Assembly (NCBI GenBank): GCA_964645915.1
Contig: CAZYDH010000001.1
Span: 76,573 to 140,572 of the forward strand
DNA length: 64,000 nucleotides
From: an uncultured bacterium
Lineage (GTDB): Bacteria; Fidelibacterota; Marinisomatia; Marinisomatales; JACNKV01
Direction of reading: 5' to 3'
Shown here: positions 9,201 to 64,000 of the stretch, one piece after another
Layout of the letters: the number at the start of each line of letters is the position of its first letter
How positions within the stretch are numbered: position 1 is the stretch's first letter
The notes under the pieces: model-generated
What the model saw: only the letters and a program-made list of their open reading frames with translations
Database searches by the model: none
Told to the model about the DNA's origin: nothing
Position numbers and translations under genes: made by a program

Positions 9201-9487
9201 TATGCGATCACTGACGGGAAGCGAGAATCCGCTACCGGGGGTTGATCTCTTAACACGACAGTTTCAGGATCTTGTGTTTTTCTTGCCAGGCGAGGTCCTG
9301 CTGTTAATGCACGTTTTACAATCATATCATTGTTTTGTAAAACAGGTCCTGCAGGCAAGGCTTTTTCTGTAATTTGAGTTGATTGTCCTTTAGGAAGTTC
9401 GCCGGTGCTCTTTAAGATCGCATCGTAAGCAAACGTCACAGAAAAGACCATTACAAGAAAAAGCAATATTTTAACTGTTTTTTTCAT
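6269..9487 (-). CDS. large secreted protein with T9SS C-terminal sorting domain
   Basis: 1072-aa ORF with a signal peptide (MKKTVKILLFLVMVFSVTFA). The last ~88 aa (about nt 6269-6535), LRQNYPNPFNPTTSISFDIP...GIYFYRIEAGDYTATKKMMFLK, match the Por-secretion-tail type sorting domain. Two Ig-like modules share F(T)G(T/S)IP...GTTV.YY..A.D.G. There is a central flavodoxin/ThuA-like stretch (ADVLVLDDGP...YDDLVIIQG...FLDNGGDLLFSS). Confidence 0.8.
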   Translation of the reverse strand: MKKTVKILLFLVMVFSVTFAYDAILKSTGELPKGQSTQITEKALPAGPVLQNNDMIVKRALTAGPRLARKTQDPETVVLRDQPPVADSRFPSVIAYDAGSTGFGGFIFNTGDSAAVWYRPDTECTVEGVQLYFHSESELVGTDVTLVVREVLDVTSAGVDANGVYDFSYYNESPGDFMGNVLASYTFPLTSSDVSTLLDFTFPTPADVGANDFAIQVIGDFGGDGPDLYYYAGDGGSGTTYNHGFKFYNGGASYCDEGCWVPRLNFAVDAKVDYYGDPPPFITDVLDLPDVYASCDGGPYYATANIVDVGTADFTGALTSVIFGYDIGDGVVETELVGSGVDDIFTGTIPSVPVGTTVSYYWKAVDNGDENPAGGVQHTTDLSLAPKSFTVREYTAGADVLVLDDGPNALDATYAARIAEALYELGYSVDFWNTQSGGALTACELNKYDDLVIIQGLNSEGLLGVGGTLEADVMAFLDNGGDLLFSSADYIYGITGGAEGWSTVDAGAYPFLANYLHTSDFWSDANYYGDDFGSTDTLYTGVEGNLLTGEFLDPFEVTCPEASNWADEIIGDDDAESIFNVFSTEEEDFVDFGGVMYDGFYRMAFVPWHLEGIDDDAVLFGFLDNTMQWFEVESVPVITGHDGPSGPIFTQEDITVVATAEDREGDVFAVDLIYTIDGEATTVALTDNGDGSFTGSIPGQEGGTTVVYYLVATDAGGSFVTADYSYFVYAPSSDVLFVLNNEMDSGSYPGLYYFYDDYVTGNLFVWPDFWESNVNGLPTAELLSFYNTVFEITTTSDYPFYGALHTYYDGALSDWLAQGDKQYVLAGDETFGIYNMSWGDVDFAEGSFFHNLGVASTLNDINDAAISPIATVEGDLISGALFAAEGGDTVLYDPGYEIEFANWLDGLVPTADGTVCFSSGGNAVGVHKTWTNGNKTLFLGFDPLSLNDDPYVWWGAKEEGSLKQALDWITASTDPLKPLPTSFALRQNYPNPFNPTTSISFDIPQVSDVTLTIYNLLGNTVAKIDRQGLTPGSHTVQWNGVNNFGQPVSSGIYFYRIEAGDYTATKKMMFLK

Positions 9488-9683
9488 GTTGTTTTGTTCT
9501 CCTGTTTGTTAATTAAGTTTTCTCTACCGATTATCGTTCAATGATTACGAAGAGTCGGCATGGAAAATTATCAAAAATATAATGATGAAAATTCTCTGAG
9601 AAAACACATCACTATTGGAGTTTAAAAAACAATAGACACATATTCCAACACTATTTTGATATAAAAACTTTACACAATTATTT

Positions 9684-9807
9684 GTTGCTTTTTCGGTAAA
9701 AAACACTACAAATTAAACATCGTTTTGAGACAAAATCGATTAACAGTTGCATTTTCAGTAAAAAGCAGTACAAATTCTATGTGGGTTTAGATCAAAATCG
9801 ATATTTG
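9684..9807. repeat. 62-bp imperfect tandem repeat (2 units) in a divergent promoter region
   Basis: Unit A is 9684-9745 and unit B is 9746-9807. A 31-nt box (gttgc.tttc.gtaaaaa.ca.tacaaatt) matches at 27/31 positions. A 10-nt box, caaaatcgat, is identical and sits at the same 62-nt offset. The spacer between the boxes is divergent. Confidence 0.8.
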
Positions 9808-9850
9808 ATAAGCGCTTAAAACCAAATCATACACCAATAAAGAAAATTTA

Positions 9851-12800: not shown

Positions 12801-13399
12801 CAAGTCAAATCATTCCTGGTCATGAGAATTATTTAGATTGGGATCAAAGACATACTATAAATGCCACGCTAAAGACAACCATACCATATATTGATGTTGA
12901 TATGAATACAACAGTTAACTATGGAAGTGGATTGCCTTATTCTCCACCAAATAAATCTTTAGAGGTTAAAATTAATACAGAAAGATTGCCGCATACATTC
13001 AATATGGATTTATATGCTAGCAAAAGCTTCAACATCCCTGGTTTTGGTGGCGATACAAAAGCATCTGTGTTCCTCTGGATAGACAATTTGTTCAATAATA
13101 AAAATATTACAGCTGTTTATGATTCCGAATGGTATCACTTGTATACAAACTATCAAAAAGCCTATGAGGACAAAGACAAGGCTGTTTTCCCATCTGAAGA
13201 TGATAATAATGGTATTGATGACGATGGAGATGGATATATTGATGAAACATTTAAAGATGAATATATGTGGGTAATGGATATAGATGGTGATGGTAAAGTT
13301 GATTACAATAAAAAACATCCATCGGGCGGAGTGTATGGTATCCCGGGATATCTTTCACAGGATAGAACAGTTAAGTTTGGTATTTCAGTAAAATTTTAA
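9851..13399 (+). CDS. TonB-dependent receptor-like outer-membrane protein with N-terminal carboxypeptidase-regulatory-like domain
   Basis: 1182 aa. The signal peptide fits better from the alternative ATG at 9863 (MRKIKPFIFIMIFATMLFAG). CarboxypepD_reg-like domain (GKIAGRITDATTGEPLIGANIIV...DGYYTILFVPPGQYTLNV), plug-like region (RGGRDGEILFLINGVP) and a barrel ending in a terminal aromatic (VKFGISVKF). Three Asp-rich DxDxDG insert segments. Confidence 0.85.
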   Translation: MEILMRKIKPFIFIMIFATMLFAGNTGKIAGRITDATTGEPLIGANIIVTGTSLGSATDLDGYYTILFVPPGQYTLNVNSMGYAKSVITDVVVTVDLTTTINVEMTTEVLEGEIVTVTAKKPLIETDLVSSRRSMTSEMIEEIPVDDIEDILNLTAGIVDGHARGGRDGEILFLINGVPAVDPIDNEFSAEVPTLGIAETNIITSGISVEYSNALSGVVNMVTQEGSSKLKGTFRMKTDDNSMVNFGFPGLNKETVYEGALGGPLLNLPVRWFVAGEVTNTQGRYGVAEREAGAVTTSLTWRPFPKSKFKLAVNNNYSKNNQYSYRYSRVSYENENSDNDDRLDRVVTIQAKDIFDPTTYGTDGLLYGLNMEDVISIAGLSADDIPKRNVMIEVDKDGTGGIIAGDGDFREEDLNGNSQWDIIDFNRSGATTDSSFIDMNDDGVYQWGVDVPTSTNATEVDGHAVILANRNLTDDPLASGFNDSFSMLDHLLRFKDNSSHISLSLNQQFAKNSFLMVSLSRFKTYYHYDTEESSSIPSYIDFLDEAGVEQKYINDYKDNLFTDWNNNDFLDISEDAFPDDYSKWLAWEDIPIQNTQDRDKFYTYGNGTTFSRNRWNEDEKVIWNFKTTLTSQATKHHLLRAGFEMNLYDVFDHDIDMPSGGNIYGQNIGSRNDWGRFGESYSDWGLDGVEGTNDDYEGNNTWDHLDYGEDGVLAIDGNGDGDYDDDFIDLPPDVGEGDGKVNYNELHEPFEDIYDDDTWGKKQQKLDPIWWGMFVEDKMEFKSLVVVSGIRVDYFNPKFSNYPSDINDPVIDQTTGGEVKNPTSVDGKFYWSPRIGISYPITNRDAFYFNYGQTFQIPQFQFMYRNINWDFSGAFPIVGNPDILPETTTSYELGLRHQIGQFWRLEVKGFYKDIQGLVDTKQIWIKANQYYTRHINGDYGNVKGLEIDLFRQFTKYFGGNINYTYSIAKGKSSSAMQNYSFTWASQIIPGHENYLDWDQRHTINATLKTTIPYIDVDMNTTVNYGSGLPYSPPNKSLEVKINTERLPHTFNMDLYASKSFNIPGFGGDTKASVFLWIDNLFNNKNITAVYDSEWYHLYTNYQKAYEDKDKAVFPSEDDNNGIDDDGDGYIDETFKDEYMWVMDIDGDGKVDYNKKHPSGGVYGIPGYLSQDRTVKFGISVKF

Positions 13400-13415
13400 T
13401 ACATAGAAGACAATC

Positions 13416-15752
13416 ATGAATAAATACAAAAAAATAACAAGTATCATCATAGTGCTTTCACTAAGTATGGTTGTTGGGAAAAATATAAATACAATTAATT
13501 ATTCCCCAACTTCTATGAGAAGTGCGGCTGTCGATGAATATAGAGTTCACAACGTTGGAAAAGTGTGGACAGCAACCAGCAACTTTGGAAACTACGGCGA
13601 TCCGAATGTTCCCGAAGGACTTCCCTCTATGGAATGGCCGGGAGGTACCGGAACACACCATTTGTGGGAAGGGCGACTGTGGATCTCTGCATTAGTTGAT
13701 GGAGAAAAACGCTGTAGTCACGCAGACTACGGACAGTACGAGTTTCACCCAACCGAGGGAAGCACCTTTGACCTTCCGGCATATCCCGGAAAATCAGTTG
13801 AAGACAGCTATGCAACATTTGATGATTTTGTCGGTCCGCACACGACAACATCCCTTGGCATTAAAATTAAACAAAGAGGATTAACATGGAGTACACCCGA
13901 TTATGACGATTTTGTCATTTATGAACTTGATGTTATTAAAGAACGTAGTGGTGATGATTATAGTGGCGATGAATTAAATGAACTCTATGTAAGTTGGGTA
14001 TATGATTGTGATGTAGGTACCGGAAACGACCCAACAAACCCACATATTGACGATGCTGTTGATTTTGATGGATGGGATGGAAATAATCCGGAAAGTCAGA
14101 TTACTTATAAAATAGACCTTGTCGAAAATGGTGATCTTGATGCGGATGGAGTTATTGAAGGTTATAGTGATGCCGGAGTACCGTACGGATGGAAGAATGT
14201 AGGAAGTCCATCATCATCGCAACCGGATTTTGAACCGACATTAGCATATCCAGACGGATTCTATGATGAATATACTGTTCTGTTATCAGATGATGCTAAT
14301 GCACCGGTTATTGTATGGCAATTAGATGCAACAAATCCCGACTATGATGCGGTTGCTGGGCAGGTTGCCGTGATAAGCGGAGACACATTAAAAGGGTATA
14401 TCGTTCCGAGAAATATGTCTTATATGTATGATGCAGACGATCCAACTACTCCTGAAGATGACACAAATGAAGGAGGTAATGTCCCCGGGTTTATTGGAGG
14501 ACGCTTGCTCTACACAGATATGTGGAAAGCAGGTCCTTACTTAGACACAGAGGATGACACACTCATGCGAGTCTTTAGTCATCAATGGTGGAATTGGGAA
14601 TCCGACCCCGCAACTGATAGAGATAAATTTGATTATGCAACCGGAACGCATATTGAAAGTCGGGGAAATAAATTTATGCCCCACCCATTTAATGTGGGTG
14701 CGCCGACATTTGATTATCGGTTTATGTTAACGACCGGTCCATTTAATAATTTTGAATTAGGTGATACAATAAGCTTTGTTTATGCTGCGATTGTTGGATC
14801 AGGCATTAGAGACCTACGAGTAAATGCTGATAATGCTTTAAAAGCTTATTTTGCCGGAAGTACTTCGAGTCCATATGATCCACTTAGCCCGGATGAAGAC
14901 GTTCATTATTTGTTGCCGATTCCTCCTCCAGTTCCTGTGTTAGCATACAGTCCGTTGGATCAAGGTGTCATGATGTCTTGGGACAATTCTTCAGAATTAG
15001 AAGTTGATCCTCTAGTTGGGGCAGCAGATTTTGAAGGGTATAGAATTTATCGATCAAAATTTGTTCCGGGAAACTGGGAATTGCTTGGTGCCTTTGATAA
15101 TGTAGACGGTCCTGTTTATATGCTTGATTTTGAGACAGGTGATACCTTATTTAATAAACAACAATATGACTTACCTGAATTGACTCATAGTTTTTATGAT
15201 ACATCTTCGGTATTTCAATCTTACGATGTAGATGGCAATATAGTGGATATGATTACTGGGATTGATAAACCAATCAACAATCTTCCTTATTATTATGTTG
15301 TGACAGCTTATGACAATCCAGCAGCACATGGGAAACCGGAATTTCCACCCATTGAATCATCAAAATCCAATTATAAAACCAATGCAACAACCGGAGCACC
15401 TGAGCCCGTTTATCCTAGAAAGTTTTATAACGAAGGAGAAGAATGGAACGGAAAATATGTTTCAGTTTATCCAAATCCATATAAAGGAGCATCTCTACTA
15501 GAAGCTCAATATGAAAACAAAATAAACTTTACACACTTACCCCCTGCATGTAAGATTTCAATCTTCAGCATAACAGGAGATTTGATAAAAGAGATATATC
15601 ACAATGATAGCTCATCAGACGATGCATGGGATTTAACTTCAAAAGCAGATTTGGATGTTGTGAGTGGTATGTATGTCTATGTGGTTGAAACAACCATTAA
15701 ATCATTCCCATCTAAACAAATTGGTAAATTCGTTATTCTGAGGGGTAACTAA
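13416..15752 (+). CDS. secreted protein of unknown function with T9SS-type C-terminal domain
   Basis: 778-aa ORF with a signal peptide (ITSIIIVLSLSMVVG), 16 nt downstream of the receptor gene. The C-terminus VYPNPYKGAS...ISIFSITGDLIKEIY...GMYVYVVET...KFVILRGN resembles a T9SS/FlgD-Ig-like sorting domain. Contains a DLDADGVIEG calcium-loop-like motif. Confidence 0.7.
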   Translation: MNKYKKITSIIIVLSLSMVVGKNINTINYSPTSMRSAAVDEYRVHNVGKVWTATSNFGNYGDPNVPEGLPSMEWPGGTGTHHLWEGRLWISALVDGEKRCSHADYGQYEFHPTEGSTFDLPAYPGKSVEDSYATFDDFVGPHTTTSLGIKIKQRGLTWSTPDYDDFVIYELDVIKERSGDDYSGDELNELYVSWVYDCDVGTGNDPTNPHIDDAVDFDGWDGNNPESQITYKIDLVENGDLDADGVIEGYSDAGVPYGWKNVGSPSSSQPDFEPTLAYPDGFYDEYTVLLSDDANAPVIVWQLDATNPDYDAVAGQVAVISGDTLKGYIVPRNMSYMYDADDPTTPEDDTNEGGNVPGFIGGRLLYTDMWKAGPYLDTEDDTLMRVFSHQWWNWESDPATDRDKFDYATGTHIESRGNKFMPHPFNVGAPTFDYRFMLTTGPFNNFELGDTISFVYAAIVGSGIRDLRVNADNALKAYFAGSTSSPYDPLSPDEDVHYLLPIPPPVPVLAYSPLDQGVMMSWDNSSELEVDPLVGAADFEGYRIYRSKFVPGNWELLGAFDNVDGPVYMLDFETGDTLFNKQQYDLPELTHSFYDTSSVFQSYDVDGNIVDMITGIDKPINNLPYYYVVTAYDNPAAHGKPEFPPIESSKSNYKTNATTGAPEPVYPRKFYNEGEEWNGKYVSVYPNPYKGASLLEAQYENKINFTHLPPACKISIFSITGDLIKEIYHNDSSSDDAWDLTSKADLDVVSGMYVYVVETTIKSFPSKQIGKFVILRGN

Positions 15753-16822
15753 TGATTAAGAAAATAAATACTCTATGGAAAACCACGTGTTTTCTACTAA
15801 TAATTACAGGCCTTGCTCTTGGCAGTGATTCAGACTCTGAAGGTTCCAAAACCGCAAAAGCTGGTTTTGTTGGAGCACAGTTTTTAAAACTGGATGTGGG
15901 CGCAAGAGGATTTTCAATGGGTGCATCAATGGATCCGTTGTTGAGCGATGCTTCTTCAGTGTTTTGGAATCCGGCCGGCCTTGCATTAGCGCCTAATCAA
16001 TATGTTTTTGCTTCAAAAACAAAATGGTTTGCCGATGTTAGTCATATGGCTGCTGCCTATTCGATAAAGGTCCCAAAAATCAGGGGAACGGTTGCAGTCA
16101 GTTTAGTCTCATTGTCATCAGGTGATATGCCTGTTACGACCATCGAAGATCAAGACGGAAGTATCAGTGGAGAAAAATTCAGCACAGGAAGCTATTCTGT
16201 TGGTCTTGGATATGGTGTTAACATCTCGGATAAATTTAGTTTTGGTACACATTTTAAATTCATCCATGAAGATTTTGCTCAGGGTCTATCAGATGTAGAG
16301 GATGGATATGGAGCAGGAAGTACTTGGGCTTTTGATGTGGGAACACTTTATGACACCAATTACAAAACGTTAAAATTGGGAATGTCTATCAGAAACTTTG
16401 GACCGGACTTACAATTGGATGGAAGTTTTATAGATTATAATAATGGTGAGCCAATTTTAGATGAAGACGGAGAACCTGAAGAGAATACGTTCAGACCATA
16501 TGGTTTGCCATTGACTTTCCGTTTTGGAGTAGCAGCAACTCCTCTTGATAATCAAGTACATAAGTTAGCTGTTTCGGTAGTTGCAGAGCATCCCGCCGAT
16601 AATCATGAAAGAATTAATATGGGAACGGAGTACACATTTTCTAAGTTTTTTGTATGTCGGGCAGGATATGTGTTTAATGACGATTCAAGAGGAGGATCTT
16701 TGGGGATTGGTATCAATAATTTCCCGATCGCCAATTTTGGAAGAATTAATATTGATATAGGTATGACAGATTACTCCTTGTTTGATCCTACATATATTGC
16801 ATCATTTGGAATTCAAATTTAA
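15752..16822 (+). CDS. PorV/PorQ-family outer-membrane beta-barrel
   Basis: 356 aa with a signal peptide. The N-terminal motif GAQFLKLDVGARGFSMGASMDPLLSDASSVFWNPAGLA is typical of PorV/PorQ (UPF0164-like) barrels. There are alternating beta-strand patterns throughout. Its start overlaps the upstream stop by 1 nt (TAATG). Confidence 0.7.
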   Translation: MIKKINTLWKTTCFLLIITGLALGSDSDSEGSKTAKAGFVGAQFLKLDVGARGFSMGASMDPLLSDASSVFWNPAGLALAPNQYVFASKTKWFADVSHMAAAYSIKVPKIRGTVAVSLVSLSSGDMPVTTIEDQDGSISGEKFSTGSYSVGLGYGVNISDKFSFGTHFKFIHEDFAQGLSDVEDGYGAGSTWAFDVGTLYDTNYKTLKLGMSIRNFGPDLQLDGSFIDYNNGEPILDEDGEPEENTFRPYGLPLTFRFGVAATPLDNQVHKLAVSVVAEHPADNHERINMGTEYTFSKFFVCRAGYVFNDDSRGGSLGIGINNFPIANFGRINIDIGMTDYSLFDPTYIASFGIQI

Positions 16823-16837
16823 CATCAAGAGAATAAT

Positions 16838-19800
16838 ATGAAACATCTCGTAAAAATAATCATAACTATTGCTCTGATAAATTCACACATTTTTTCTGCG
16901 GACGTAACTCAAGCAGAAGTTGGAGACAACTATATGTTTTGGGTCCTCGGACAGGGGTTTTTCTCAGGGTATTACCAATCAAGTGCTACATTGAATGCTG
17001 AAGGCGAAAACGCAGTTGTCTTCACCGAAGACGCCTTGGTGCGCGATCTAGCATTTTTACCATACAATGATTCCGTGTTGGTTGCTACGACGAACTCCGG
17101 TGTGTTTATTTCAACAGACAGAGGAGATACATGGGTAGCTTCACATGGAACAACGGGGACAAGCGCACTTCCGGAACAACCTGCGAACAACTTAACAAAC
17201 ATCGAGGAAATTCCGTATCAACACAAAGAGGCGGTAAACTCAATCGCATTTGAAGATGAGGAAACCTGGTGGGTTGGGTTGAAAGGAACAGACGATACTA
17301 AAACCATTTATCGTACAACAAATGCCGGTGAAACGTGGAAGAAAAAATCTACTGGAGCTCCAACATTTGATGGGCATAACCCCACCGTTAACAAAATGTA
17401 TTTTGCGCCGGGAATTGATAAACCATATGCTGCAACAGTTGGTGGTTTGTTTTACAAATCCGGATCACGTTTTAAAAACATTGGACACGCATTACCAGAT
17501 CCCTCTACAACGGATTGGCCATCAATCCCGACCTATGATGTAATGGCACAAGGTGAAAAACTATACTTTGCAACCGATTATGGAATGTTTTTTGGCTCAG
17601 TTGAGTTGTCGGCAATTGATGCTCTTCCAATTGGAAATGGAACGGTTGATATTAACTCAAGTGGTTTAACGTATGTCGTTGATGAGGTTCTTGATTCAAC
17701 GCAGACAGATCAATTTACTTGGGATTGGGCTACTGGAGATACGGTCTGGGTTTATGATTATTTTACCAGACTGGATACAGTGTCTTGGCATCTCGGGCTT
17801 GATGTTGAAGCACTAGACCACGCAGGACAATATGTAAATGTTGAGGATACCACAACTAGCACAAAATGGAAAAGTAAAATCAATCCTAGTGGTGTGGTTG
17901 AGTTGATGAATGACTATATTTATCAAGAAGGTTCTTTAGACCCGGATCTCTTGGATTATGCTGATTACGATGCGTCCAATCTTATTGTACATCTTGTGGG
18001 AACTGAACCAATCTATGATTTTGATATTGATTCAGCAGGAAATATATATTATTCTACAGGAACTGAAGTAAAAGTCTTAGGTGGAGAATCCATTGAAGGT
18101 TTAAGTGGGACCATCAACGATATTGAACTTTCGGTAAATGAAGATGCACTATTTACAGCAACGTCAAACGGACTTCAAAAACACGTATTCGGAGAGTCCG
18201 GTTGGACCGAAATAACCCCCAAGATTGGCATGCTCAATAAAAATGATGAAATATCATTTGTGGTTACTTCAATTGTACAATTTAATCAAGACACTCTATT
18301 TGTTAGCTGTGGAAACAATCAATTTGACGACCCAAGGACAGTCACGTATCGTACAGGTGGTGTATTAGCCTCTTATGATGGAGGCAGTACATGGGCTCCA
18401 AAAAATATCGGTTTGACCCATCGTTCATCAACCCCTGATGACGTACAAAGTATTTTAAGAGCAAATGTAGTTCCATTGCCAGTTGACTCAACAACCGTTG
18501 CTGACGAAAATGTTGGAATTTATGATTACGTAACTTCATATTATGGCCAGACACCAAATATTGACAATAATGAAAAAGTGAATATTTTAATCGCCGATAT
18601 GGATGATAATGCCTATAACGCAACGAGCGATCTGATCATTCAGGGATATTTTAGTCCTCCAGACCAAGACCCCACAGAACTTAACAGCAATGCATTGGAT
18701 TTAATCTATCTGGATAGTGATCCTCAGGATCCGGGAGAAGCTCAGGAAGGCATTGCCAGAGCACTTGCAAGGTTGATTTGTCATAATTATGATGCAGATG
18801 AAGAAGAGTGGGTGTTGACAGGATTGGAGCATTTTGCAGCCTATATTACCGGTCATAAATCCATGCCTGACGACTCGTTTGTTTTAAGCAATAACAACAG
18901 CTTGACAAAATACGGTGACTATGGAAATAACACGGAATACGATCAACTATTCCTGATGATGGAATATTTATACGAAAAATATTTCAATGAATCCCCGTTT
19001 GAGGAAAACTCCGGAAAATTGATGTCAGTAATTGTACAGGAGGAAGAAAATAGTGTTGACGGTATCGAGAACGCACTTGGTACTATAAATGCCGGAAAAT
19101 CATTCTCAGAAGTATATTCCGATTGGGCGTTAGCGATTCATTTTGATAACCCTGACAACTCACTCTATGATGGTTTATATGGATTTGAAAATGTAGATGT
19201 AAGCATTGCACCCTCTTCTTATCCGTGGGGTGTTACTTCAGGGTATTCACCCTATTCTGAAACGATTAAAAATTGGTCTGTTAAATATACTCAAACAGAA
19301 AAATGGGTTGATAATAATGGATCATGGACAAACAAAGCATTAGACTTTAATCAGGAAACACTTGTTGTAAATGCCTCTGATAATGGTGATTTTGATATGT
19401 TCCTTATTAAACAGCACCATAAAACCGAAAAAGATTCAACCGCGACAGTAACACTATTGGATCTTAACCTGGATCAAAATAGGATTGTTTACTCTGATTG
19501 GGACGATTTTGGTTCCACAGTGGAATCGGTCACCGACAGCTCTGAAATTAATGAGTATCAGTATTTTGCTCTGATTGTTGTATCAAAAGAAACGGGTAGC
19601 GATGCTGGTGGTTCGTTCGTTGTAGATGACGAAACAGACCCACCGGTGACTTTTGACTTGCATATTAATCAAAATTCAGACCTTGTAAATTACTTGGACA
19701 TCTATGCGTTCAGCGATGTGGCGATCTATGGTGACGGTGCTTCCAGTACAAATAGTGAACTTGAAGGACCTCTTGTAGAAATCAACAATGGAGAAGGTAT

Positions 19801-20659
19801 TGTTACGTCCTTTATTGTTCCACAAGTTTACGATGCCGGAAATGGGTTTGTTTATAGCGCTCCATTTGATCTTAGATCGTTTCTTCCAACAACCATATCT
19901 GAATATTGGTTTATCGGACATGCAGAAAGCATTGGAGGAAATGCAGCAGCTTCGGATAGTGTTTTTGTAGTCGCTATTAAAAACGACAATCAATCTGCTC
20001 GTGAATTTGTTAGCACACACACACAACTGACAATGACGATTCCCGCACAAACCATTGTCGAAAACGAACTACTGACAGTGATTAAAACAGACCAAGATAT
20101 GGCCAACCAAACATTTATGCCGGTTAGCGATGCATTTGCTGTTGGGAATGTAAATGTTGAATTAAGAAGACCAATTACGGTCGGTTTTGATCTGTCGTCA
20201 ATGAATCTTTCCATCGATGATAAACGCAAATTAGATATTTGTTATGAGTTGGATGGCGAACCAATTGCTCTCAACACACAAATTGATTTAATAAATGATA
20301 TTGTTACAGCACAAATAGACAAATGCGGTAACATCCAATTGGTGATCAACTCTAATAAACCTATAGTTGAAGAGGTCCCCAATAGCTATAAGCTATTTCA
20401 AAACCATCCTAATCCGTTTAACCCAAGAACCATCATTCAATATGATATTCCGGAAGCAACAAATGTATCATTAAGTGTTTATGATCTTCTTGGTAGAAAC
20501 ATAAAAACACTGATTAATGAACATCAAAAAGCCGGTCATTATTCAGTTCAATGGGCAGGCCTTGATTACGCAGGGAATAAAGTTTCCTCAGGTATATATT
20601 TCTATAGACTTGAAACAGAACAATTTTCAAAAACATATAAAATGATAATGGTGAAATAA
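16838..20659 (+). CDS. very large secreted protein with Asp-box (BNR) repeats and T9SS C-terminal sorting domain
   Basis: 1273 aa with a signal peptide. Asp-boxes are STDRGDTW (~17111), TTNAGETW (~17315) and SYDGGSTW (~18371). The sorting domain (~20387-20659) is LFQNHPNPFNPRTIIQYDIP...GIYFYRLETEQFSKTYKMIMVK, clearly homologous to the tail of the 6269-9487 gene. Confidence 0.8.
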   Translation: MKHLVKIIITIALINSHIFSADVTQAEVGDNYMFWVLGQGFFSGYYQSSATLNAEGENAVVFTEDALVRDLAFLPYNDSVLVATTNSGVFISTDRGDTWVASHGTTGTSALPEQPANNLTNIEEIPYQHKEAVNSIAFEDEETWWVGLKGTDDTKTIYRTTNAGETWKKKSTGAPTFDGHNPTVNKMYFAPGIDKPYAATVGGLFYKSGSRFKNIGHALPDPSTTDWPSIPTYDVMAQGEKLYFATDYGMFFGSVELSAIDALPIGNGTVDINSSGLTYVVDEVLDSTQTDQFTWDWATGDTVWVYDYFTRLDTVSWHLGLDVEALDHAGQYVNVEDTTTSTKWKSKINPSGVVELMNDYIYQEGSLDPDLLDYADYDASNLIVHLVGTEPIYDFDIDSAGNIYYSTGTEVKVLGGESIEGLSGTINDIELSVNEDALFTATSNGLQKHVFGESGWTEITPKIGMLNKNDEISFVVTSIVQFNQDTLFVSCGNNQFDDPRTVTYRTGGVLASYDGGSTWAPKNIGLTHRSSTPDDVQSILRANVVPLPVDSTTVADENVGIYDYVTSYYGQTPNIDNNEKVNILIADMDDNAYNATSDLIIQGYFSPPDQDPTELNSNALDLIYLDSDPQDPGEAQEGIARALARLICHNYDADEEEWVLTGLEHFAAYITGHKSMPDDSFVLSNNNSLTKYGDYGNNTEYDQLFLMMEYLYEKYFNESPFEENSGKLMSVIVQEEENSVDGIENALGTINAGKSFSEVYSDWALAIHFDNPDNSLYDGLYGFENVDVSIAPSSYPWGVTSGYSPYSETIKNWSVKYTQTEKWVDNNGSWTNKALDFNQETLVVNASDNGDFDMFLIKQHHKTEKDSTATVTLLDLNLDQNRIVYSDWDDFGSTVESVTDSSEINEYQYFALIVVSKETGSDAGGSFVVDDETDPPVTFDLHINQNSDLVNYLDIYAFSDVAIYGDGASSTNSELEGPLVEINNGEGIVTSFIVPQVYDAGNGFVYSAPFDLRSFLPTTISEYWFIGHAESIGGNAAASDSVFVVAIKNDNQSAREFVSTHTQLTMTIPAQTIVENELLTVIKTDQDMANQTFMPVSDAFAVGNVNVELRRPITVGFDLSSMNLSIDDKRKLDICYELDGEPIALNTQIDLINDIVTAQIDKCGNIQLVINSNKPIVEEVPNSYKLFQNHPNPFNPRTIIQYDIPEATNVSLSVYDLLGRNIKTLINEHQKAGHYSVQWAGLDYAGNKVSSGIYFYRLETEQFSKTYKMIMVK

Positions 20660-50276: not shown

Positions 50277-51524
50277 ATGGATGTTAATAAGCTCCATTCC
50301 TTAAAGATCAAGGAATTAACGAAGCTTGCCCAAGAATTAAATATTAAAGGATATTCAGGGCTGAACAAGCAGGCACTGATTATGCGAATTATTCAGGAAC
50401 GAGAGGACAAAGACAGCTCTTTATACGCCAAAGGTGTACTCGAAGTGATGTCTGACGGATATGGATTTCTCCGAAGTGCAGATTTCAATTATCTTCCCGG
50501 ACCGGATGACATTTATGTCAGCCCTTCCCAAATTAAACGACTTGGCTTAAGAACGGGTCATTCAGTGTACGGTCAAATTCGACCTCCAAAAGCAAAAGAG
50601 CGGTTTTATGCTTTATTAAAAACAGAAATGGTAAATGATCGCCCTGTTGAGGAAATGAAAAATGCCATTATGTTTGATAATTTTACTCCACTCCACCCTG
50701 AAGAAAAATTCAACCTTGACACAGATCCGAAAAATATGTCTATGCGAATCATGGACTTGATCTCTCCTCTTGGTAAAGGACAGAGGGGGATGATCGTCGC
50801 CCAACCGAAAACAGGGAAGACAGTCCTTTTGCAAAAAATTGCAAATGCGATTCGAAAAAATCATCCTGAAACAAAGATGCTTATCTTATTGATCGATGAA
50901 CGTCCGGAAGAAGTAACCGACATGAAACGAAATGTAGATGCAGAAGTTGTCAGCTCAACATTTGATGAAGCGCCGGAACGTCACGTTGCCGTGACAGACA
51001 TGGTTCTGCAAAAAGCAAAACGCATGGTAGAATATGGTGAGGATGTTGTAATCCTTTTGGATAGTTTGACTCGTCTGGGGCGTGCACACAACGCTGTCAT
51101 ACCACATAGCGGAAAAATCCTTTCAGGAGGTGTAGACTCCAATGCCTTGAAAAAACCAAAACAGTTTTTTGGCGCAGCAAGGAACACCGAAGAAGGTGGA
51201 AGTCTTACAATCGTTGCAACGGCATTGGTAGATACGGGAAGTCGGATGGATGATGTGATTTTTGAAGAATTTAAAGGAACGGGAAATATGGAATTGGTCT
51301 TAGATCGAAAATTAAGTGATCGGCGACTTTTCCCTGCCTTCGATCTGATACGTTCCGGGACCAGAAAAGAAGAACTTTTACTCTCAAAATTAGGAACCGG
51401 AAGAATGTGGATTTTACGGAAACTCTTAAACGAGATGAACACGGTAGAAGCAATGGAATTCATATTGGATAAGATGAGACGAACAAAATCAAATGAAGAA
51501 TTTTTAAATACAATGGGAAGATAA
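50277..51524 (+). CDS. rho: transcription termination factor Rho
   Basis: 415 aa. N-terminal [15 protein letters not shown], the CSD-like RNA-binding domain [14 protein letters not shown], Walker [12 protein letters not shown], and LIDERPEEV. Confidence 0.96.
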
Positions 51525-51626
51525 TTACTCCATATATTTAACGACTGGTGTAGATAATAAATAATTTGTTGGGAAGATAATTACTTCCTATATTTAATGA
51601 CTGGTGTAGATAATAAATAATTTGTT
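51515..51626. repeat. 56-bp tandem direct duplication (2 units, 53/56 identical) spanning the rho stop codon
   Basis: Unit 1 is 51515-51570 and unit 2 is 51571-51626. Both begin GGGAAGATAA, the last 10 nt of rho including its TAA. Mismatches are at unit positions 16, 18 and 28. Confidence 0.9.
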
Positions 51627-51638
51627 TATGAGGTATAT

Positions 51639-52661
51639 ATGAATGAACAGGTATCACCTATTATAGAAGAAAGAGTGATAAAAACTGTAATCGTAAAAGT
51701 CATTACGGATAAACCGGTGAGAAAAACACCTTATCAGGTGAAGGGTGTTTTTATCAGCCATTTCCCTGATGAGGATATTGTTCCGTTATTGGATGGAAGA
51801 TACAGGGAGCATTTTTTGTATCCCCGTGTTCAAGTCAAGATCCTTAACGAGCAAATATATATCGTGGGTGTGAATGAAGGTGTAGAACCGGTTTTATCAT
51901 TGGCACAAAAATTTGATGTCTTAGATTTTGGGAATATCACTTTTCAGGTAATGGACGTTGATGTCGAAGAAATCATGGATAGGTTTAAACCCGTTGATCG
52001 GTTGATTCGATATCGGTTTATAACTCCTTGGGTTGCTCTAAATCAAACAACCGGAAGTCGGTATCGCTTCTTAAATAATACAGAACGGGTTACATATCTA
52101 AATCGTTTGCTAGGGCAGAACATAGTTTTTCTTGCAAGAGAGATGGGAATTGACATAGAGGATAAGATTTATACAAAATTAGCCTTAACCTCCCTTTTCC
52201 CGAAACCGGTAGATGAAAACAACTGGGGTGCTTTTTATGGCGAATTCCGTACGAATTTTATTCTGCCGAATTATATCGGTGTTGGAAATGGAATTACGCG
52301 CGGATATGGAACGATCTATGGACTGGTTAATCCAGAAGTCTTCAGTTTTGATGAAGAAACACTCAAGAAAAGTGTGAAAAAAGAAAAACCGGAAGAAATA
52401 AAAGAAACAGACAAAGGACTGGAATCTGTTGGGGTTGAAGAAGTCCCAACTCCTAAAAAACGGATCTTTTTCCAGAGAAAAAAAGAGAGCAGTCGTAAGA
52501 TGTTTGCGGAGGAGTTTGATGTGGAAGAGCAGCCACTACCGTCTGAGAAAAAGCGGAAATCGCCTGCAAAAATCACACGGAAGAAAAAGAAAAAAGATGT
52601 GGAAACAGACGAAGATAAATTCAACAGCCCTGAATTTCATCAAAAGCAACACAGTATATAA
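51639..52661 (+). CDS. Cas6-like RAMP-fold protein with lysine-rich C-terminal tail (orphan, no CRISPR context)
   Basis: 340 aa. The first ~225 aa show a Cas6-like pattern: the N-terminus KTPYQVKGVFISHF...YPRVQVKIL and a glycine-rich loop, YIGVGNGITRGYGTIYG (52278-52316), matching G-h-G-x(4,5)-G-[FY]-G. The last ~105 aa are Lys/Glu-rich low complexity (KKSVKKEKPEEIKE...KKRKSPAKITRKKKKKD). Confidence 0.45.
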   Translation: MNEQVSPIIEERVIKTVIVKVITDKPVRKTPYQVKGVFISHFPDEDIVPLLDGRYREHFLYPRVQVKILNEQIYIVGVNEGVEPVLSLAQKFDVLDFGNITFQVMDVDVEEIMDRFKPVDRLIRYRFITPWVALNQTTGSRYRFLNNTERVTYLNRLLGQNIVFLAREMGIDIEDKIYTKLALTSLFPKPVDENNWGAFYGEFRTNFILPNYIGVGNGITRGYGTIYGLVNPEVFSFDEETLKKSVKKEKPEEIKETDKGLESVGVEEVPTPKKRIFFQRKKESSRKMFAEEFDVEEQPLPSEKKRKSPAKITRKKKKKDVETDEDKFNSPEFHQKQHSI

Positions 52662-52679: not shown

Positions 52680-52710
52680 AAAAAAGCCTCGAAACCCGAG
52701 GCTTTTTTTA
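52680..52710. terminator. bidirectional intrinsic terminator
   Basis: An A-run, then the hairpin AGCCTCG-AAACC-CGAGGCT (52685-52703), then a T-run. It lies between convergent genes. Confidence 0.85.
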
Positions 52711-52738
52711 TTAACAAAAGATTAAACAACTAAAAAGG

Positions 52739-54391
52739 TTATTTCGACAACCTTTTTGGTCCGGCTGAGATAACGTCATCCGGAACTCCGGCAGAAAACA
52801 ATTTGAAGTTTTCAACATACCGTGAGACCAATGCATCATATTTTTGCCAATATTCATCTTTATCTCCCCAGGCATTGGAAGGCTCAAAAACATCTTCTGG
52901 AACCCCAGGACAAGAAAGAGGAATATCAAAACCAAAGAGTTTATCTTTACGATATTTAACTTTATCTAACTCTCCATCCAAGGCAGCATTTAACATGTTG
53001 CGTGTATGACGGATACTAATCCGTTTCCCTACACCAAATTTTCCACCGACCCACCCTGTGTTTACCAACCAAACATTCGCACCGGAATTTTCTGTTTTCT
53101 TTCGAAGAAGATCCGCATAGAAAAATGGATGGTGTACCATGAACGGCGCACCAAAACATGGACTGAAAGTGATTTCAGGTTCAATACCTAAGCCCATTTC
53201 CGTTCCGGCAATTTTGGAGGTGTATCCGCTGATAAAATGATAGATCATTTGCTCCATGTTCAACTTAGCAATCGGTGGCATAACTCCCTGAGCATCACAG
53301 GTAAGAAAAATGATGTTGTTCGGTTGAGAACGCACTATTTTATCCTGAACTGCATTCGGAATGAATTCCAGAGGATAGGATAGACGCGTATTCTCAGTGA
53401 ATCGTTCATCATCGAGATCGATATGACGAGAAGTTGTATCAAAGACAACATTCTCTAAAATCGTTCCAAACTTTCGTGTGCAGGCGTGAATTTCAGGTTC
53501 AGCTTCGGCAGAAAGGCGAATAGCTTTCGCGTAGCACCCACCTTCATAGTTGAATACCGCTTCGTCACTCCATCCGTGTTCATCGTCCCCAATCAGAGAC
53601 CGGCTTGGATCGGCAGACAGAGTCGTTTTCCCCGTTCCGCTTAATCCGAAGAACAATGCGACATCGTTCTTTTTACCAACATTTGCTGAACAGTGCATAG
53701 ACATAACATCTTTTAATGGCATGAGATAATTCATGACAGTAAATGCAGTCTTTTTGATCTCACCTGCATAGTGGGTATTGGCTACTATCGCAAGACGTTT
53801 CGATAAGTCCACGGAAATAGCCGTTTCACTATTTGTTCCATCAATACGCGGATCGACCTTAAAAGATGGAGACGCAATAATCGTAAACTCCGGAATAAAG
53901 GACTTATGTTTATCCAGTTTTTCATCACCAATAAACATATTTCGGGCAAACATGCTCTGCCAAGCAGTATCCGTAATGATACGAATCGCCATCCGATGTT
54001 CAGGATCGGCACCAACATACATATCCTGTACAAAGAGTTCTTCTCCTTGTAGAAAGGCTTGTAATCTAGTGTAAAGATTATTGAACTTTTCTACGCTCAT
54101 CGGACGATTATATTCGCCCCAATTGATCTTGTCTTCAGTCGAAGGTTCGCGAACAAAATATTTTTCGTTTGCTGCACGGGCGGTCCATTTTCCGGTATTG
54201 ACCAAAAAAGCACCACCGTATGTGAGTTTTCCTTCGTTTCTGAATATGGCTTCTTCATAGAGTGCCGGTTTGGGTAAATTCCAAAACACACGCTCCAGAT
54301 GAACCAACCCATGATTTTTTAATCCATAATCACTTTTCAGATCCTTAGCCTGTTTTTGAGCAGGCGATTCAAATTTTAAATACTTGCTCAT
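52739..54391 (-). CDS. pckA: phosphoenolpyruvate carboxykinase (ATP)
   Basis: 550 aa. Kinase-1a loop FFGLSGTGKTTLS, plus IGDDEHGW and NTGWVGG. Confidence 0.95.
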   Translation of the reverse strand: MSKYLKFESPAQKQAKDLKSDYGLKNHGLVHLERVFWNLPKPALYEEAIFRNEGKLTYGGAFLVNTGKWTARAANEKYFVREPSTEDKINWGEYNRPMSVEKFNNLYTRLQAFLQGEELFVQDMYVGADPEHRMAIRIITDTAWQSMFARNMFIGDEKLDKHKSFIPEFTIIASPSFKVDPRIDGTNSETAISVDLSKRLAIVANTHYAGEIKKTAFTVMNYLMPLKDVMSMHCSANVGKKNDVALFFGLSGTGKTTLSADPSRSLIGDDEHGWSDEAVFNYEGGCYAKAIRLSAEAEPEIHACTRKFGTILENVVFDTTSRHIDLDDERFTENTRLSYPLEFIPNAVQDKIVRSQPNNIIFLTCDAQGVMPPIAKLNMEQMIYHFISGYTSKIAGTEMGLGIEPEITFSPCFGAPFMVHHPFFYADLLRKKTENSGANVWLVNTGWVGGKFGVGKRISIRHTRNMLNAALDGELDKVKYRKDKLFGFDIPLSCPGVPEDVFEPSNAWGDKDEYWQKYDALVSRYVENFKLFSAGVPDDVISAGPKRLSK

Positions 54392-55605
54392 ACCCAGTCC
54401 CTCACTAATTTACGTTCACCAATATAAAGTTCATTCGGTGAGTTTGGATCTAATGCCCATTTAATCCGCTCTATCCCTGCGGTAATATCTTTAATCGTTC
54501 CACAGGTAGAAAGGCGTAAAAATCCGTCCAAACCAAATTCAACACCCGGCATGGTGGCAACCCGAACTTTTTCCAACAGGAAATTGGCAAGTTCAGTAGA
54601 GTTTTTATTATATTTTCTGAAATCAACGAATGTATAAAATGCTCCATCCGGTTTATATGCTTTCACTCCCTCAAATGCATTGAGTTGCTCCATCATGACA
54701 TTTCGGTTGTTCTCCAGTGTCAGTCTCAAAGATTCTACACAGGACTGGACCCCGTTAATAGCACCGACAGTGGCACGTTGCATCAACACGGGTGGACCGG
54801 AGGTCTGATGCCCTTGAATATTGGTCATGACTTCGATCAGTTTTGTGTTCGCAACCGCCCAGCCGATACGAAATCCTGTCATTGCGTATTGTTTGGAGAC
54901 GCTGTTCACAAGAATCAATTTGGAGTTATTCGAAAAGTCCGAAGCATAATCATAACAGGAAATGGTTTTTCTACCGTCAAAGATCAGTCGATGATAGATC
55001 TCATCCATGATCAGGTAAATACCTTTTTTCTCGCAATATTGTACAATATCTGAAATGAAATCTTCAGAGTACATCGCACCGGTTGGATTGTTCGGACTGT
55101 TGATAATGATCGCTTTTGTGTACGAAGTAACATTTTGTTCAATGTCTTTCATACGTGGATAAAAGGAACCATCTTCAGATAAAACAGGAACCGGAACAGC
55201 CCCACAGAGTTTGACCATCTCTGGATAACTCACCCAATACGGCGCAGGGAAGATAACTTCATCTTGTGGATCAAGAATCGCCTGAAGTACAACCATGATC
55301 GCTTGTTTAGCGCCACTAGATGCAATCACATTTTCCGGTTCAACTTTTCGATTGTAGAATTCTTCCGTATAGCGAATGATCGCTTGTTTTAATGGAATGA
55401 TCCCATCGGCAGGTGTATAGCGTATTTCACCGGAATTCAACAATCCGGAAACAGCTGTGATCGCGTCGATGGGAGCTTTTGTTTTTGGTTCTCCTCCGCC
55501 GAGATGAATAAGGGGTTCTCCCTTTGCGCGAAGGATGGCGGCAACCTCATTCAGCTTCAGGGTCGCTGATTCACCGATTGACCGCCCAATTAGGCTTATA
55601 CTCAT
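54388..55605 (-). CDS. class I/II pyridoxal-phosphate-dependent aminotransferase (aspartate aminotransferase-like)
   Basis: Contains INSPNNPTG and the PLP-lysine motif SVSKQYAMTGFRIGW. The ATG at 55605 is preferred over the TTG at 55623. A 4-nt overlap links it to pckA. Confidence 0.88.
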   Translation of the reverse strand: MSISLIGRSIGESATLKLNEVAAILRAKGEPLIHLGGGEPKTKAPIDAITAVSGLLNSGEIRYTPADGIIPLKQAIIRYTEEFYNRKVEPENVIASSGAKQAIMVVLQAILDPQDEVIFPAPYWVSYPEMVKLCGAVPVPVLSEDGSFYPRMKDIEQNVTSYTKAIIINSPNNPTGAMYSEDFISDIVQYCEKKGIYLIMDEIYHRLIFDGRKTISCYDYASDFSNNSKLILVNSVSKQYAMTGFRIGWAVANTKLIEVMTNIQGHQTSGPPVLMQRATVGAINGVQSCVESLRLTLENNRNVMMEQLNAFEGVKAYKPDGAFYTFVDFRKYNKNSTELANFLLEKVRVATMPGVEFGLDGFLRLSTCGTIKDITAGIERIKWALDPNSPNELYIGERKLVRDWV

Positions 55606-55921
55606 AATGATACCTTTTAACAATTAGTCTTGTTAAAAATCGCCGGAAATTTTCAAATGCACATCTGCAAAATGAAAATATTTTCCACGGCATGTGTCTT
55701 AGAAATTAGGGAGTTATTTCTATCGAAATGAAGTGATTTTCAACAGAATTTTAAATCTATTAATTTTGCCAAGTTATAGAGAATAATAACTCTTAAATTT
55801 ATTAGAAAAGAATCAATTTAAGAGAAAAACCATTCCTTATAGTGGCACATTTGATGGGAATTATCTTTCTTGTTCTTCCAATACAGTTAATCTATATTTC
55901 CCGTCTTAATTTGGAGATAAT

Positions 55922-62209: not shown

Positions 62210-64000
62210 TTACCAGAGAATTTGTGCTCCGATCTTTAAAGAACGTGGTTCAACAATTGACTCTGTTATCACTGCAGTTAGTTTAAAACGATCTTTATGT
62301 TTGATTGAAATACCGGCATTGAAGTTAAACTTGTTTGAAAAATGGTGGTCTCCGGGGAATTCGTGTCCTTCAACATAGGCAGAATCTTCCTCAGTAATTG
62401 TGATGCCATCCACAATAGTGGTTGATGATTCGTGATTTACAATTAGATCGTATCCTTCCTCAACATCGATCTGTTTCATTAATTTTGTAAACCCGACCTG
62501 AATTTCAATATTATTACCAACATCAACAAAGACACCTATTGGGACAGCAAGAATTGTTTGAGTTCTTTCATACCACCATGCAAATTGTTTGTCGTCTAGT
62601 TGTGTAGTTGTTTTATCGTAAAAGCTTGTCCAGCTATAACCATTATAGAGTCGTTGAGAAAATTTTTCTCCTTCAAAAGGTTCGGTAGCTTCTTGTTTCT
62701 GATTCAAATAATCGAAACTTAATCCCCCTACAAATCGCAAAGAAGGACTGATACTCCAATCAACCCCGGCAGTTATTTGTTGATGTTTCCGAAGAAAATC
62801 TCCTCGCCCAATGCGATCCATAGTTGCCCAAGAATCCGACTCAGAAATATAACGATAACTTGTGTCATTGGCTGTATACAAAAAAGTACGATGGTAATAA
62901 CTATGCCCGAAAAAATCTTCAGATTCATCTAAATCAGCTTTCGAATCTTCGGTGTGAACTGAGAATCGTAGTAGAAAACCATCACGGATGGTAATATCTG
63001 CATGAACGGATGCCCAAACCGAGTTTCCATCATAATCCCATTTTTTGATATTATCAGATCTTCTGAAACTTCTATAAATGCTTGAATCGGGTTGGTTAAC
63101 ATTATATAAAGAAAAATAATTTGAAGTATCGGTTACTACATAGGTCCGGGATAAAGAACCAGGAGTAAAACCCGCTGAGACACCAAAGCGTACGGTTTCT
63201 TTGGGTGACCAGATTAATCCCGCCCTAACTTCAGCCTGATCGAAATTTTGCTTTCGATTTTTGTAGCTATTTGAATATCTCAAATACTCATCAGCATAGT
63301 TGTTATCATCTTTACGATCCATATCGCGATATGTACCATCGCTATTTTCAAGATGTAACGTTGTTCCAACTCCAAGACTTAACCAATTGAAAAGCGGAAT
63401 TGCCAGAAAACTGTTCAAACGATATCCGGTATTAGTTTCGGTGTTTGTTCCGGTTTCTACTAAACGATAATCGGTATATGGATCGATTAGTTCATCACTG
63501 TACTCAGCACCATCAGCCGCTTCAGTATACCATTCACTTCGATACCAGTACGGACGATAAAAATCCTCTTCATTATAGAAATACTCTGCAGTAATTCCAA
63601 ATCGAAGCGGTAGGGTCGGTATTTTTCCCAAATATACAGCTCGAAAGAGGGGTTCTTTCCCTTGAACAGTTTCTGTTGTTGTATAAGGCGACCAATAATA
63701 TGGATAGGGACTGTAAATATCAATCCCATCATAACCGATCCCAGGGACATTATTAAATCTTGGTTCAAACTCTTCACTGGCCAAATCGAGATAGATATAA
63801 TTATCCGGGACATAACTTAAATAGGCTGGATTTAAAAATACATTATCTAACGGGTGATTATAAATGTTGAGAAAATGATTACCTAATCCCATTAATCCAA
63901 CAGAACGAATCTTTGTAGGTGCTAAGTAATCTTGTCGGATTTGAAAATCGGTTGCAAGAATTGTATAATCCGGATACCAGCCATAAAGCAAAGAACAAGA
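62210..64000 (-). CDS. outer-membrane beta-barrel protein of unknown function (5' end outside window)
   Basis: The frame stays open past the track's TTG (63991) to the window edge. It is Tyr/Trp/Asp-rich with alternating strands, and the C-terminus is SLKIGAQILW with a terminal aromatic, as in OM barrels. Confidence 0.55.
   Translation of the reverse strand, partial: SCSLLYGWYPDYTILATDFQIRQDYLAPTKIRSVGLMGLGNHFLNIYNHPLDNVFLNPAYLSYVPDNYIYLDLASEEFEPRFNNVPGIGYDGIDIYSPYPYYWSPYTTTETVQGKEPLFRAVYLGKIPTLPLRFGITAEYFYNEEDFYRPYWYRSEWYTEAADGAEYSDELIDPYTDYRLVETGTNTETNTGYRLNSFLAIPLFNWLSLGVGTTLHLENSDGTYRDMDRKDDNNYADEYLRYSNSYKNRKQNFDQAEVRAGLIWSPKETVRFGVSAGFTPGSLSRTYVVTDTSNYFSLYNVNQPDSSIYRSFRRSDNIKKWDYDGNSVWASVHADITIRDGFLLRFSVHTEDSKADLDESEDFFGHSYYHRTFLYTANDTSYRYISESDSWATMDRIGRGDFLRKHQQITAGVDWSISPSLRFVGGLSFDYLNQKQEATEPFEGEKFSQRLYNGYSWTSFYDKTTTQLDDKQFAWWYERTQTILAVPIGVFVDVGNNIEIQVGFTKLMKQIDVEEGYDLIVNHESSTTIVDGITITEEDSAYVEGHEFPGDHHFSNKFNFNAGISIKHKDRFKLTAVITESIVEPRSLKIGAQILW

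Follow-up and report, generated by a model that had tools for sequence, protein, structure and literature searches.

The gene cas6L, so named here for its Cas6b-like product, lies directly behind rho in a 64,000-nucleotide stretch of DNA (the window) from an uncultured bacterium of the phylum Fidelibacterota (GTDB lineage Marinisomatia; Marinisomatales; JACNKV01; the accession number of the assembly in GenBank: GCA_964645915.1, contig CAZYDH010000001.1, positions 76,573 to 140,572 of the forward strand). We consider it highly probable that its product, Cas6L, is a housekeeping protein working outside CRISPR immunity, which was domesticated from Cas6b and is co-expressed with Rho. The gene would have come into being by exaptation of a CRISPR Cas6b endoribonuclease into a vertically inherited housekeeping gene of the Fidelibacterota (Marinimicrobia/SAR406). 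A preliminary description of this DNA, made from the letters alone, had proposed that a protein of the Cas6 fold stands alone here, serves a non-CRISPR purpose and may be linked to Rho, and this proposal is now supported by profile searches, structure prediction and comparative genomics. The open reading frame (ORF) given there was recovered together with all the strings quoted from its translation, that is PYQVKGVFISHFPDEDIVPLLDGRYREHFLYPRVQVK at residues 31–67, YIGVGNGITRGYGTIYG at residues 212–228 and EKKRKSPAKITRKKKKKD at residues 303–320 of Cas6L.

A Cas6b homologue without the catalytic histidines

The homology of Cas6L to Cas6b and its fold of two RNA recognition motif (RRM) domains, typical of the repeat-associated mysterious proteins (RAMP), are established, and the first assignment of the gene to a Cas6-like RAMP protein was therefore right. 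In Pfam, both domains of the family match above their gathering scores: Cas6b_N (PF17955) at residues 14–107 with an E value of 4e-10 (40.1 bits against a cutoff of 25) and Cas6b_C (PF17262) at residues 120–226 with an E value of 2.5e-25 (89.4 bits against a cutoff of 39.4). The Cas6/Cas6b models of PADLOC match at about 1e-42 (1.7e-40 for Cas6b), and Cas6b of M. maripaludis (Mm Cas6b, PDB 4z7k) matches with E = 1.3e-28, while the search of NCBIfam with Cas6L gave no match. Moreover, the AlphaFold (AF2) model of the core, made with a domain-only alignment of 44 sequences, has a predicted local distance difference test score (pLDDT) of 89.2 and a predicted template modelling score (pTM) of 0.84. 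The best match of this model among PDB structures in Foldseek is 4z7k_A (E = 6.2e-21, template modelling (TM) scores 0.76/0.82), and the next 30-odd matches all belong to the Cas6 family (Cas6, Csf5 and Cse3), including type IV Csf5 and P. furiosus Cas6; the tandem RRM/ferredoxin-like RAMP fold is present. More than 1,200 homologues of Cas6L were found, and the best 120 of them are 313–365 aa long at about 96% coverage, the named ones coming from Marinimicrobia, Neomarinimicrobiota or Fidelibacterota.

Cas6b, which is associated with type I-B and type III systems (M. maripaludis, 4z7k/4z7l), has the same two-RRM fold and 26–28% identity to Cas6L. The two have in common the YP.xQxK strand, the Y..F.TPW.ALN segment and the glycine-rich loop G-x-G-x5-G-x-G, whereas the catalytic dyad is missing in Cas6L. 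In Mm Cas6b the catalytic histidines H38 and H40 are interchangeable and single-histidine mutants are still active, but the H38A/H40A double mutant shows a drastic loss of cleavage activity (PMC3479195). These two histidines align to P49 and L51 of Cas6L. Within the family, 138 near-full-length representatives were compared, 92 of which are canonical Cas6b and 46 group with Cas6L. The H-x-H pattern stands at the catalytic site in 85 of the 92 canonical representatives and in none of the 46 members of the Cas6L clade, which also differ from Cas6b by clade-specific changes such as F in place of S at position 164 and an inserted Pro at position 188.

The residues common to the Cas6L clade and canonical Cas6b are Y61, P62, Y125, W131, N161, F199, G201, F203, G216, G222 and G224. 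The C-terminal glycine-rich loop, which had been noticed at the outset as G-h-G-x5-G-Y-G, is present with the core GVGNGITRGYG, and its glycines G216, G222 and G224 are invariant in the Cas6L clade as well as in 92 of 92 canonical representatives. This loop is the RNA-binding loop of Cas6 proteins. Because it is retained along with the core aromatic and Asn residues, the Cas6 RNA-binding scaffold in Cas6L looks intact.

Genomic context and conservation of cas6L

The gene had been described as an orphan, with no CRISPR array or cas gene in the 64 kb, and none was found in our array, Pfam and PADLOC scans. The window has no CRISPR array, tRNA or Rfam family, and cas and defence genes are likewise missing from the ORFs of at least 130 aa in 1–41 kb (Pfam), from the Pfam-annotated called genes in 41.6–62.6 kb, and from the ORFs without Pfam match together with the ORF at 62210–63991 (PADLOC). 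The survey was then extended to 1.7 Mb of related loci in total (up to 10 kb of flank per locus), in which no CRISPR-like array was detected. When tried on 20 synthetic arrays, the array detector recovered all 20 and gave no false positives, and the canonical CRISPR-Cas loci taken as controls also gave no arrays within the fetched flanks. In addition, no Cas families occur among the called neighbours in 10 lineages. The control Cas6b proteins of canonical size (P0286 and P0292) are encoded inside type III-A csm-cas1-cas2 and type I-B cas8b-cas7-cas5-cas3-cas1-cas2-cas4 operons, whereas cas6L has neither a cas operon nor an array at its locus and stands in an operon with rho. Cas6L is thus not a working CRISPR component, as two defining features of a CRISPR-associated Cas6b, the catalytic dyad and the cas/CRISPR context at the loci surveyed, are missing. 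In the databases, the rho-linked and histidine-less proteins P0007, P0008, P0032, P0033, P0040, P0048, P0073, P0114, P0152 and P0277 are called ‘CRISPR-associated endonuclease Cas6’, a name which is probably misleading for the entire Cas6L clade.

The sequence of Cas6L is conserved as in a housekeeping protein. Over the same set of about 80 GTDB species representatives for every protein, the median identity is 72% for the core of Cas6L, 77% for Rho, 58% for the amidase, 56% for MurI (murI) and 48% for FolC (folC). The constraint on the Cas6L core is therefore at the housekeeping level across the phylum, nearly as strong as that on Rho. Cas proteins evolve fast and co-vary with their fast-evolving repeats, and 72% identity across a phylum is atypical for them. 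For a comparison of dN/dS between core and tail, the window sequence was set against those of loci L004 and L005, where dS is saturated. Beyond the main marine clade, nine deeper lineages have 25–40% identity to Cas6L, and they are without the histidine at the catalytic site and without a conserved long tail. Their named members are Marinimicrobia or Fidelibacterota, except for one metagenome-assembled genome named ‘Lentisphaeria bacterium’ (MCF7841586.1) in the 90%-identity cluster of P0161, which is probably a mis-binned contig and not a second phylum. The phylum has a cultured member, Fidelibacter multiformis IA91 (PMC11652737).

In the window cas6L follows rho on the same strand, as first described, at a distance of 114 nt, and this arrangement is the rule wherever the upstream sequence is available. 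In 83 of 83 Marinimicrobia loci the gene immediately upstream of cas6L is a rho of like orientation; the gap between the two is 53 bp in the median and at least 20 bp. All eight deep lineages with upstream sequence (P0138, P0141, P0150, P0152, P0158, P0161, P0178 and P0242) follow rho too, the gaps being 12, 13, 14, 25, 64 and 151 bp; elsewhere among them rho is truncated by the contig end, and its presence upstream was confirmed by tblastn. The range over the Marinimicrobia loci and the deep lineages is 12–151 bp. The ninth deep lineage (P0142) is represented by a 2-kb contig that ends without upstream sequence, and it stands outside this count. The commonest gene order is folC-rho-cas6L-aminotransferase-rpmE(L31)-DUF1385-prfA. 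In L089/L090 the pair rho-cas6L is kept among carotenoid synthase, ubiA and dnaE genes, and in L095 it is kept among pyr genes and lspA; in L089 and L095 the gaps are 12–13 bp and all the other neighbours have changed. The coupling of rho and cas6L thus reaches beyond local synteny. Since the gaps are short, and in several lineages too short for independent signals, it is very probable that rho and cas6L are co-transcribed, and in places they are probably also translationally coupled.

Possible roles of Cas6L

We assume that Cas6L holds a conserved cellular RNA in a sequence- or shape-specific way without cutting it, or perhaps cuts it by a changed chemistry. It would act most likely in the Rho pathway, where it might mark or load particular transcripts for Rho, or shield them, and in the marine clade the tail, through the peptide FNSxEYHKKQH at its C-terminus, would serve to dock another protein, Rho being the prime candidate. 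The full mechanism of a non-cleaving binder that acts with Rho is offered as a tentative proposal, for which the conserved neighbourhood and the altered catalytic site speak. A more specific form of it, to which we give a rather low probability, is that the Rho termination machinery of this phylum has in Cas6L a dedicated subunit or adaptor of its own, responsible for the sequence-specific loading of Rho on particular transcripts or its exclusion from them, with the tail peptide of the marine clade docked on Rho; a CRISPR RNA-recognition module would then have been captured by an ancestor of the Fidelibacterota. If this were true, Cas6L would be the first Cas-derived component of the core transcription machinery.

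RNA- or Rho-binding factors tune where Rho acts, and charged disordered segments extend the interactions of Rho with RNA. The Rho modulators Hfq, Rof/YaeO, Psu and NusG, as well as the N-terminal insertion domains of Rho in Bacteroidota, are related to Cas6L by functional analogy only, without any relationship in sequence or fold. Rho of the window has the canonical length of 415 aa and carries no insertion.

The tail itself differs from what had been expected. The preliminary description had seen about 105 lysine-rich residues typical of non-specific nucleic-acid binding. A tail of 108 aa is indeed present, but it is a polyampholyte with a net charge of +3 (23 K and 5 R versus 19 E and 6 D) and not simply lysine-rich; over all species compared, the tail has a median net charge of +1 and a range from −17 to +14, and 44% of its residues are charged. 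The role in non-specific binding does not fit a segment that is near-neutral, carries conserved short motifs and is absent from the deep lineages. In the AF2 model made with a full-length alignment of 20 sequences, the pLDDT is below 50 over most of its length. The C-terminal motif had 80 matches in the six-frame translation of the 1.7 Mb, all within cas6L and none elsewhere. Conserved peptides within a variable charged linker suggest motifs for docking a protein rather than a clamp that holds nucleic acid non-specifically, as far as can be inferred from their pattern. The tail of about 100 aa with its short motifs, which Cas6b does not have, is found in the marine clade, and the deep lineages have no tail or short unrelated extensions; because they are without a conserved tail, it must have been added later, in the main marine clade.

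Several points weigh against the view of Cas6L as a non-cleaving protein of the Rho pathway. All the support for the link to Rho is comparative, and all lineages with a rho-linked cas6L belong to one phylum, so that the adjacency could in part be inherited operon structure. To our knowledge, the rho-rpmE-prfA neighbourhood is also kept elsewhere, where no functional link behind it is known. Docking by the tail cannot have been the original mechanism, since the deep lineages have no such tail. Next to cas6L, neither the fold z-score nor the alignment of 28 spacers gave a conserved RNA structure. The bipartition that separates the Cas6L clade is supported by 63 of 100 bootstrap replicates in an unrooted neighbour-joining tree. 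Furthermore, some Cas6 enzymes cleave without histidine, by means of Arg, Lys or Tyr (review PMC6546412), and Y61 (Y49 in Mm Cas6b) is invariant in the Cas6L clade, while R56 is kept in the marine clade and most deep lineages. Since these residues are kept and other Cas6 proteins cleave without histidine, Cas6L may still be a nuclease.

This last point leads to the alternative that Cas6L is an active endoribonuclease with a non-histidine site (Arg/Lys/Tyr), a new RNase that processes a housekeeping RNA such as the polycistronic transcript of the rho operon or a precursor of rRNA, tRNA or sRNA, the adjacency to rho providing only constitutive co-expression. The variation of the catalytic residue sets among Cas6 proteins (PMC6546412), the activity of single-histidine Cas6b mutants (PMC3479195), the retention of Y61 and R56, and the intact fold and glycine-rich loop of Cas6L are in agreement with it. 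However, the mutant of Mm Cas6b without both histidines drastically loses activity and both are absent in all 46 clade members, and neither the spacer folds nor the array scan gave a candidate substrate repeat or structure near cas6L. We regard an active nuclease as doubtful.

It seems unlikely, too, that Cas6L binds RNA or proteins in a housekeeping role that has nothing to do with Rho, for example at the ribosome or in translation termination, and owes its position to operon inheritance from an ancestral rho-rpmE-prfA neighbourhood. The commonest gene order, with rpmE(L31) and prfA close by, and the restriction of cas6L to one phylum would be expected in this case, but the pair rho-cas6L outlasts the turnover of its neighbours in L089/L090, in L095 and in the window, where pckA is convergent, and gaps of 12–14 bp suggest coupled expression. 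The weakest alternative is an ordinary Cas6b that acts in trans, maturing the CRISPR RNAs of a type I or III locus at another place in the genome: there are known cases of stand-alone cas6 genes whose arrays are far away, and the databases label many proteins of the clade as ‘CRISPR-associated endonuclease Cas6’, but such servicing of a remote locus is very unlikely because the dyad is lost clade-wide, the core is conserved at a housekeeping level atypical for Cas proteins and the position behind rho is fixed in about 90 lineages, and it is further opposed by the absence of arrays in the 1.7 Mb of flanks and by the location of true Cas6b relatives in cas operons.

The nearest precedents in function are Cas6 proteins without catalysis and derived CRISPR modules. 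Among known proteins, a distant structural relative of Cas6L is Cas6nc of P. horikoshii (PDB 3qjj), which has the Cas6 fold and matches the Cas6L model in Foldseek with E = 2.7e-7 and a TM of about 0.47. Cas6nc, the subject of ‘One RAMP protein binding different RNA substrates’, is reportedly without the catalytic histidine and binds RNA without cleaving it. It differs from Cas6L in that it comes from a CRISPR-bearing archaeon and binds CRISPR repeats, with neither linkage to rho nor a tail. Recruitment of Cas proteins beyond canonical immunity has been described for the I-E-derived cas5-6-7-8 module with a STAND NTPase in Streptomyces, for CRISPR-associated transposons (CAST) and for type IV systems (PMC8730458). 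Those are multi-Cas assemblies tied to defence or mobile elements, whereas Cas6L is a single Cas6 domain, vertically inherited in a core housekeeping operon, and the same review of derived CRISPR modules holds no case of a solitary Cas6 domain in a housekeeping operon. Cas6L is a member of the Cas6b family by homology. In the literature, no description was found that connects Cas6 with Marinimicrobia/Fidelibacterota/SAR406, with Rho or with a use outside CRISPR, most subscription journals being outside the coverage of the search.

Cas proteins are usually seen as products of defence genes that evolve fast and move horizontally; in this case one single Cas6b domain is fixed, in the rho operon, through the history of a major and globally abundant marine phylum. 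Cas6L would show how a module for RNA recognition can pass in nature from CRISPR into core RNA metabolism by domestication, and it suggests that transcription termination or RNA processing in SAR406 involves a factor so far overlooked. It may also represent a compact, probably non-cleaving and sequence-specific RNA-binding scaffold. In addition, hundreds of entries of the phylum that are named ‘CRISPR-associated endonuclease Cas6’ are probably mis-annotated, and they could inflate the counts of CRISPR components in marine metagenomes.

The rho-cas6L spacer and other features of the window

The features of the rho-cas6L unit are collected in Table 1. A duplicated 56-bp element before the gene had been suggested as a possible RNA partner of the protein, and the duplication is present, but the element is not a conserved partner RNA. 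Its unit spans the last 11 nt of rho and the ancestral rho-cas6L spacer. The duplication is identical in three contigs from different samples (L001–L003), whereas the nearest species (L004, 86% protein identity) has one copy and a gap of 57 nt; the duplication is thus species-specific. The element has no significant RNA fold (z = −0.07), and RNAalifold on 28 aligned rho-cas6L spacers gave 0 pairs and no consensus structure. A structured or conserved RNA partner in this element was rejected on these grounds.

What is conserved in the spacer is a linear GGTGTAG(C) block. Matched as RGTGTAR, it occurs in 42 of 77 rho-cas6L spacers (L004–L083 and the window), about 60-fold above the background of the loci, and it lies either over the Shine-Dalgarno sequence or upstream of the start codon by 18–46 nt. 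An internal promoter element, a standby site for the ribosome and a site bound by a protein are possible explanations. In the whole window GGTGTAG was observed 10 times against 2.3 expected, mostly as Gly-Val codons in coding sequence. It was therefore rejected as a genome-wide regulatory signal, as the excess is mainly coding and conservation is confined to the copies in the rho-cas6L spacer. In L033 (UBA6531; L033:9612-9968) there are at least 5 repeats of a 9-nt unit, AAAAGTGTA, around a gap of the assembly in the rho-cas6L spacer. Units bearing GTGTA are hence tandemly expanded in this spacer in two independent lineages (the window and L033), and the sister species have a single copy.

Table 1. 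Coordinates of rho, cas6L and the associated sequence elements in the window
Feature	Position	Strand	Remarks
rho	50277..51524	+	Upstream partner gene; 415 aa; domains Rho_N, Rho_RNA_bind and ATPase
56-bp tandem duplication (x2)	51514..51625	+	Copies 51514-51569 and 51570-51625; 95% identity
GGTGTAG motif, copy 1	51547..51553	+	rho-cas6L spacer
GGTGTAG motif, copy 2	51603..51609	+	Starts 36 nt upstream of the start codon
Shine-Dalgarno sequence GAGGT	51630..51634	+	4 nt before ATG; conserved in species with aligned spacers
cas6L	51639..52661	+	Cas6b-like protein, 340 aa including the tail; ATG start
N-terminal RRM/ferredoxin-like domain	51678..51959	+	Cas6b_N, residues 14-107; Pfam, AF2, Foldseek
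IVPLLDG	51777..51797	+	Residues 47-53; aligned to the catalytic ‘VHNH’ segment of Cas6b, both histidines replaced
C-terminal RRM domain	51996..52316	+	Cas6b_C, residues 120-226; Pfam, AF2, Foldseek
Glycine-rich loop YIGVGNGITRGYGTIYG	52272..52322	+	Alignment
Polyampholyte tail	52335..52658	+	108 aa, residues 233-340; net charge +3
Tail motif 1, VEEVPTPKK	52434..52460	+	Family consensus VPxP[RK]K
Tail motif 2, RKMFAEEFDVEE	52494..52529	+	Family consensus [RK]KVLSEEFxIEE
C-terminal motif DKFNSPEFHQKQHSI	52614..52658	+	Family consensus [FY]N..x[FYH]H.K[QR]H..-COOH
Bidirectional intrinsic terminator	52680..52708	.	13-bp stem; common to cas6L and convergent pckA

The strong terminator that had been noted behind the gene was found with a 13-bp stem, and it closes the rho-cas6L transcription unit. 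Downstream of cas6L the + strand carries aminotransferase-rpmE(L31)-DUF1385-prfA in most relatives. In the lineage of the window as well as in L005 and L010, this group is replaced by a convergent pckA (52739–54391) and an aminotransferase gene (54388–55623), which use the bidirectional terminator in common with cas6L. The pckA swap downstream of cas6L (52680–55623) is a rearrangement of local extent, by which the rho-cas6L pair was not affected.

Elsewhere in the window, a 62-nt tandem repeat (1.9 copies, 79% matches) is located at 9684–9802, in the divergent intergenic region upstream of a gene for a TonB-dependent receptor (9851–13399). It was examined as a CRISPR candidate and is not CRISPR-like; beside the 56-bp element, it is a second intergenic tandem duplication in the genome of the window. 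The receptor is of the CarboxypepD_reg-TonB-dependent (SusC-like) type on the + strand, and it is flanked by genes for two very large proteins (1072 and 1273 aa; 6269–9487 on the − strand and 16838–20659 on the + strand) with Por_Secre_tail/FlgD_ig sorting domains of type IX secretion. Beside the receptor gene there are two ORFs without Pfam match (13416–15752 and 15752–16822), and the gene group at 6269–20659 looks like a cluster for polymer utilisation or surface proteins.

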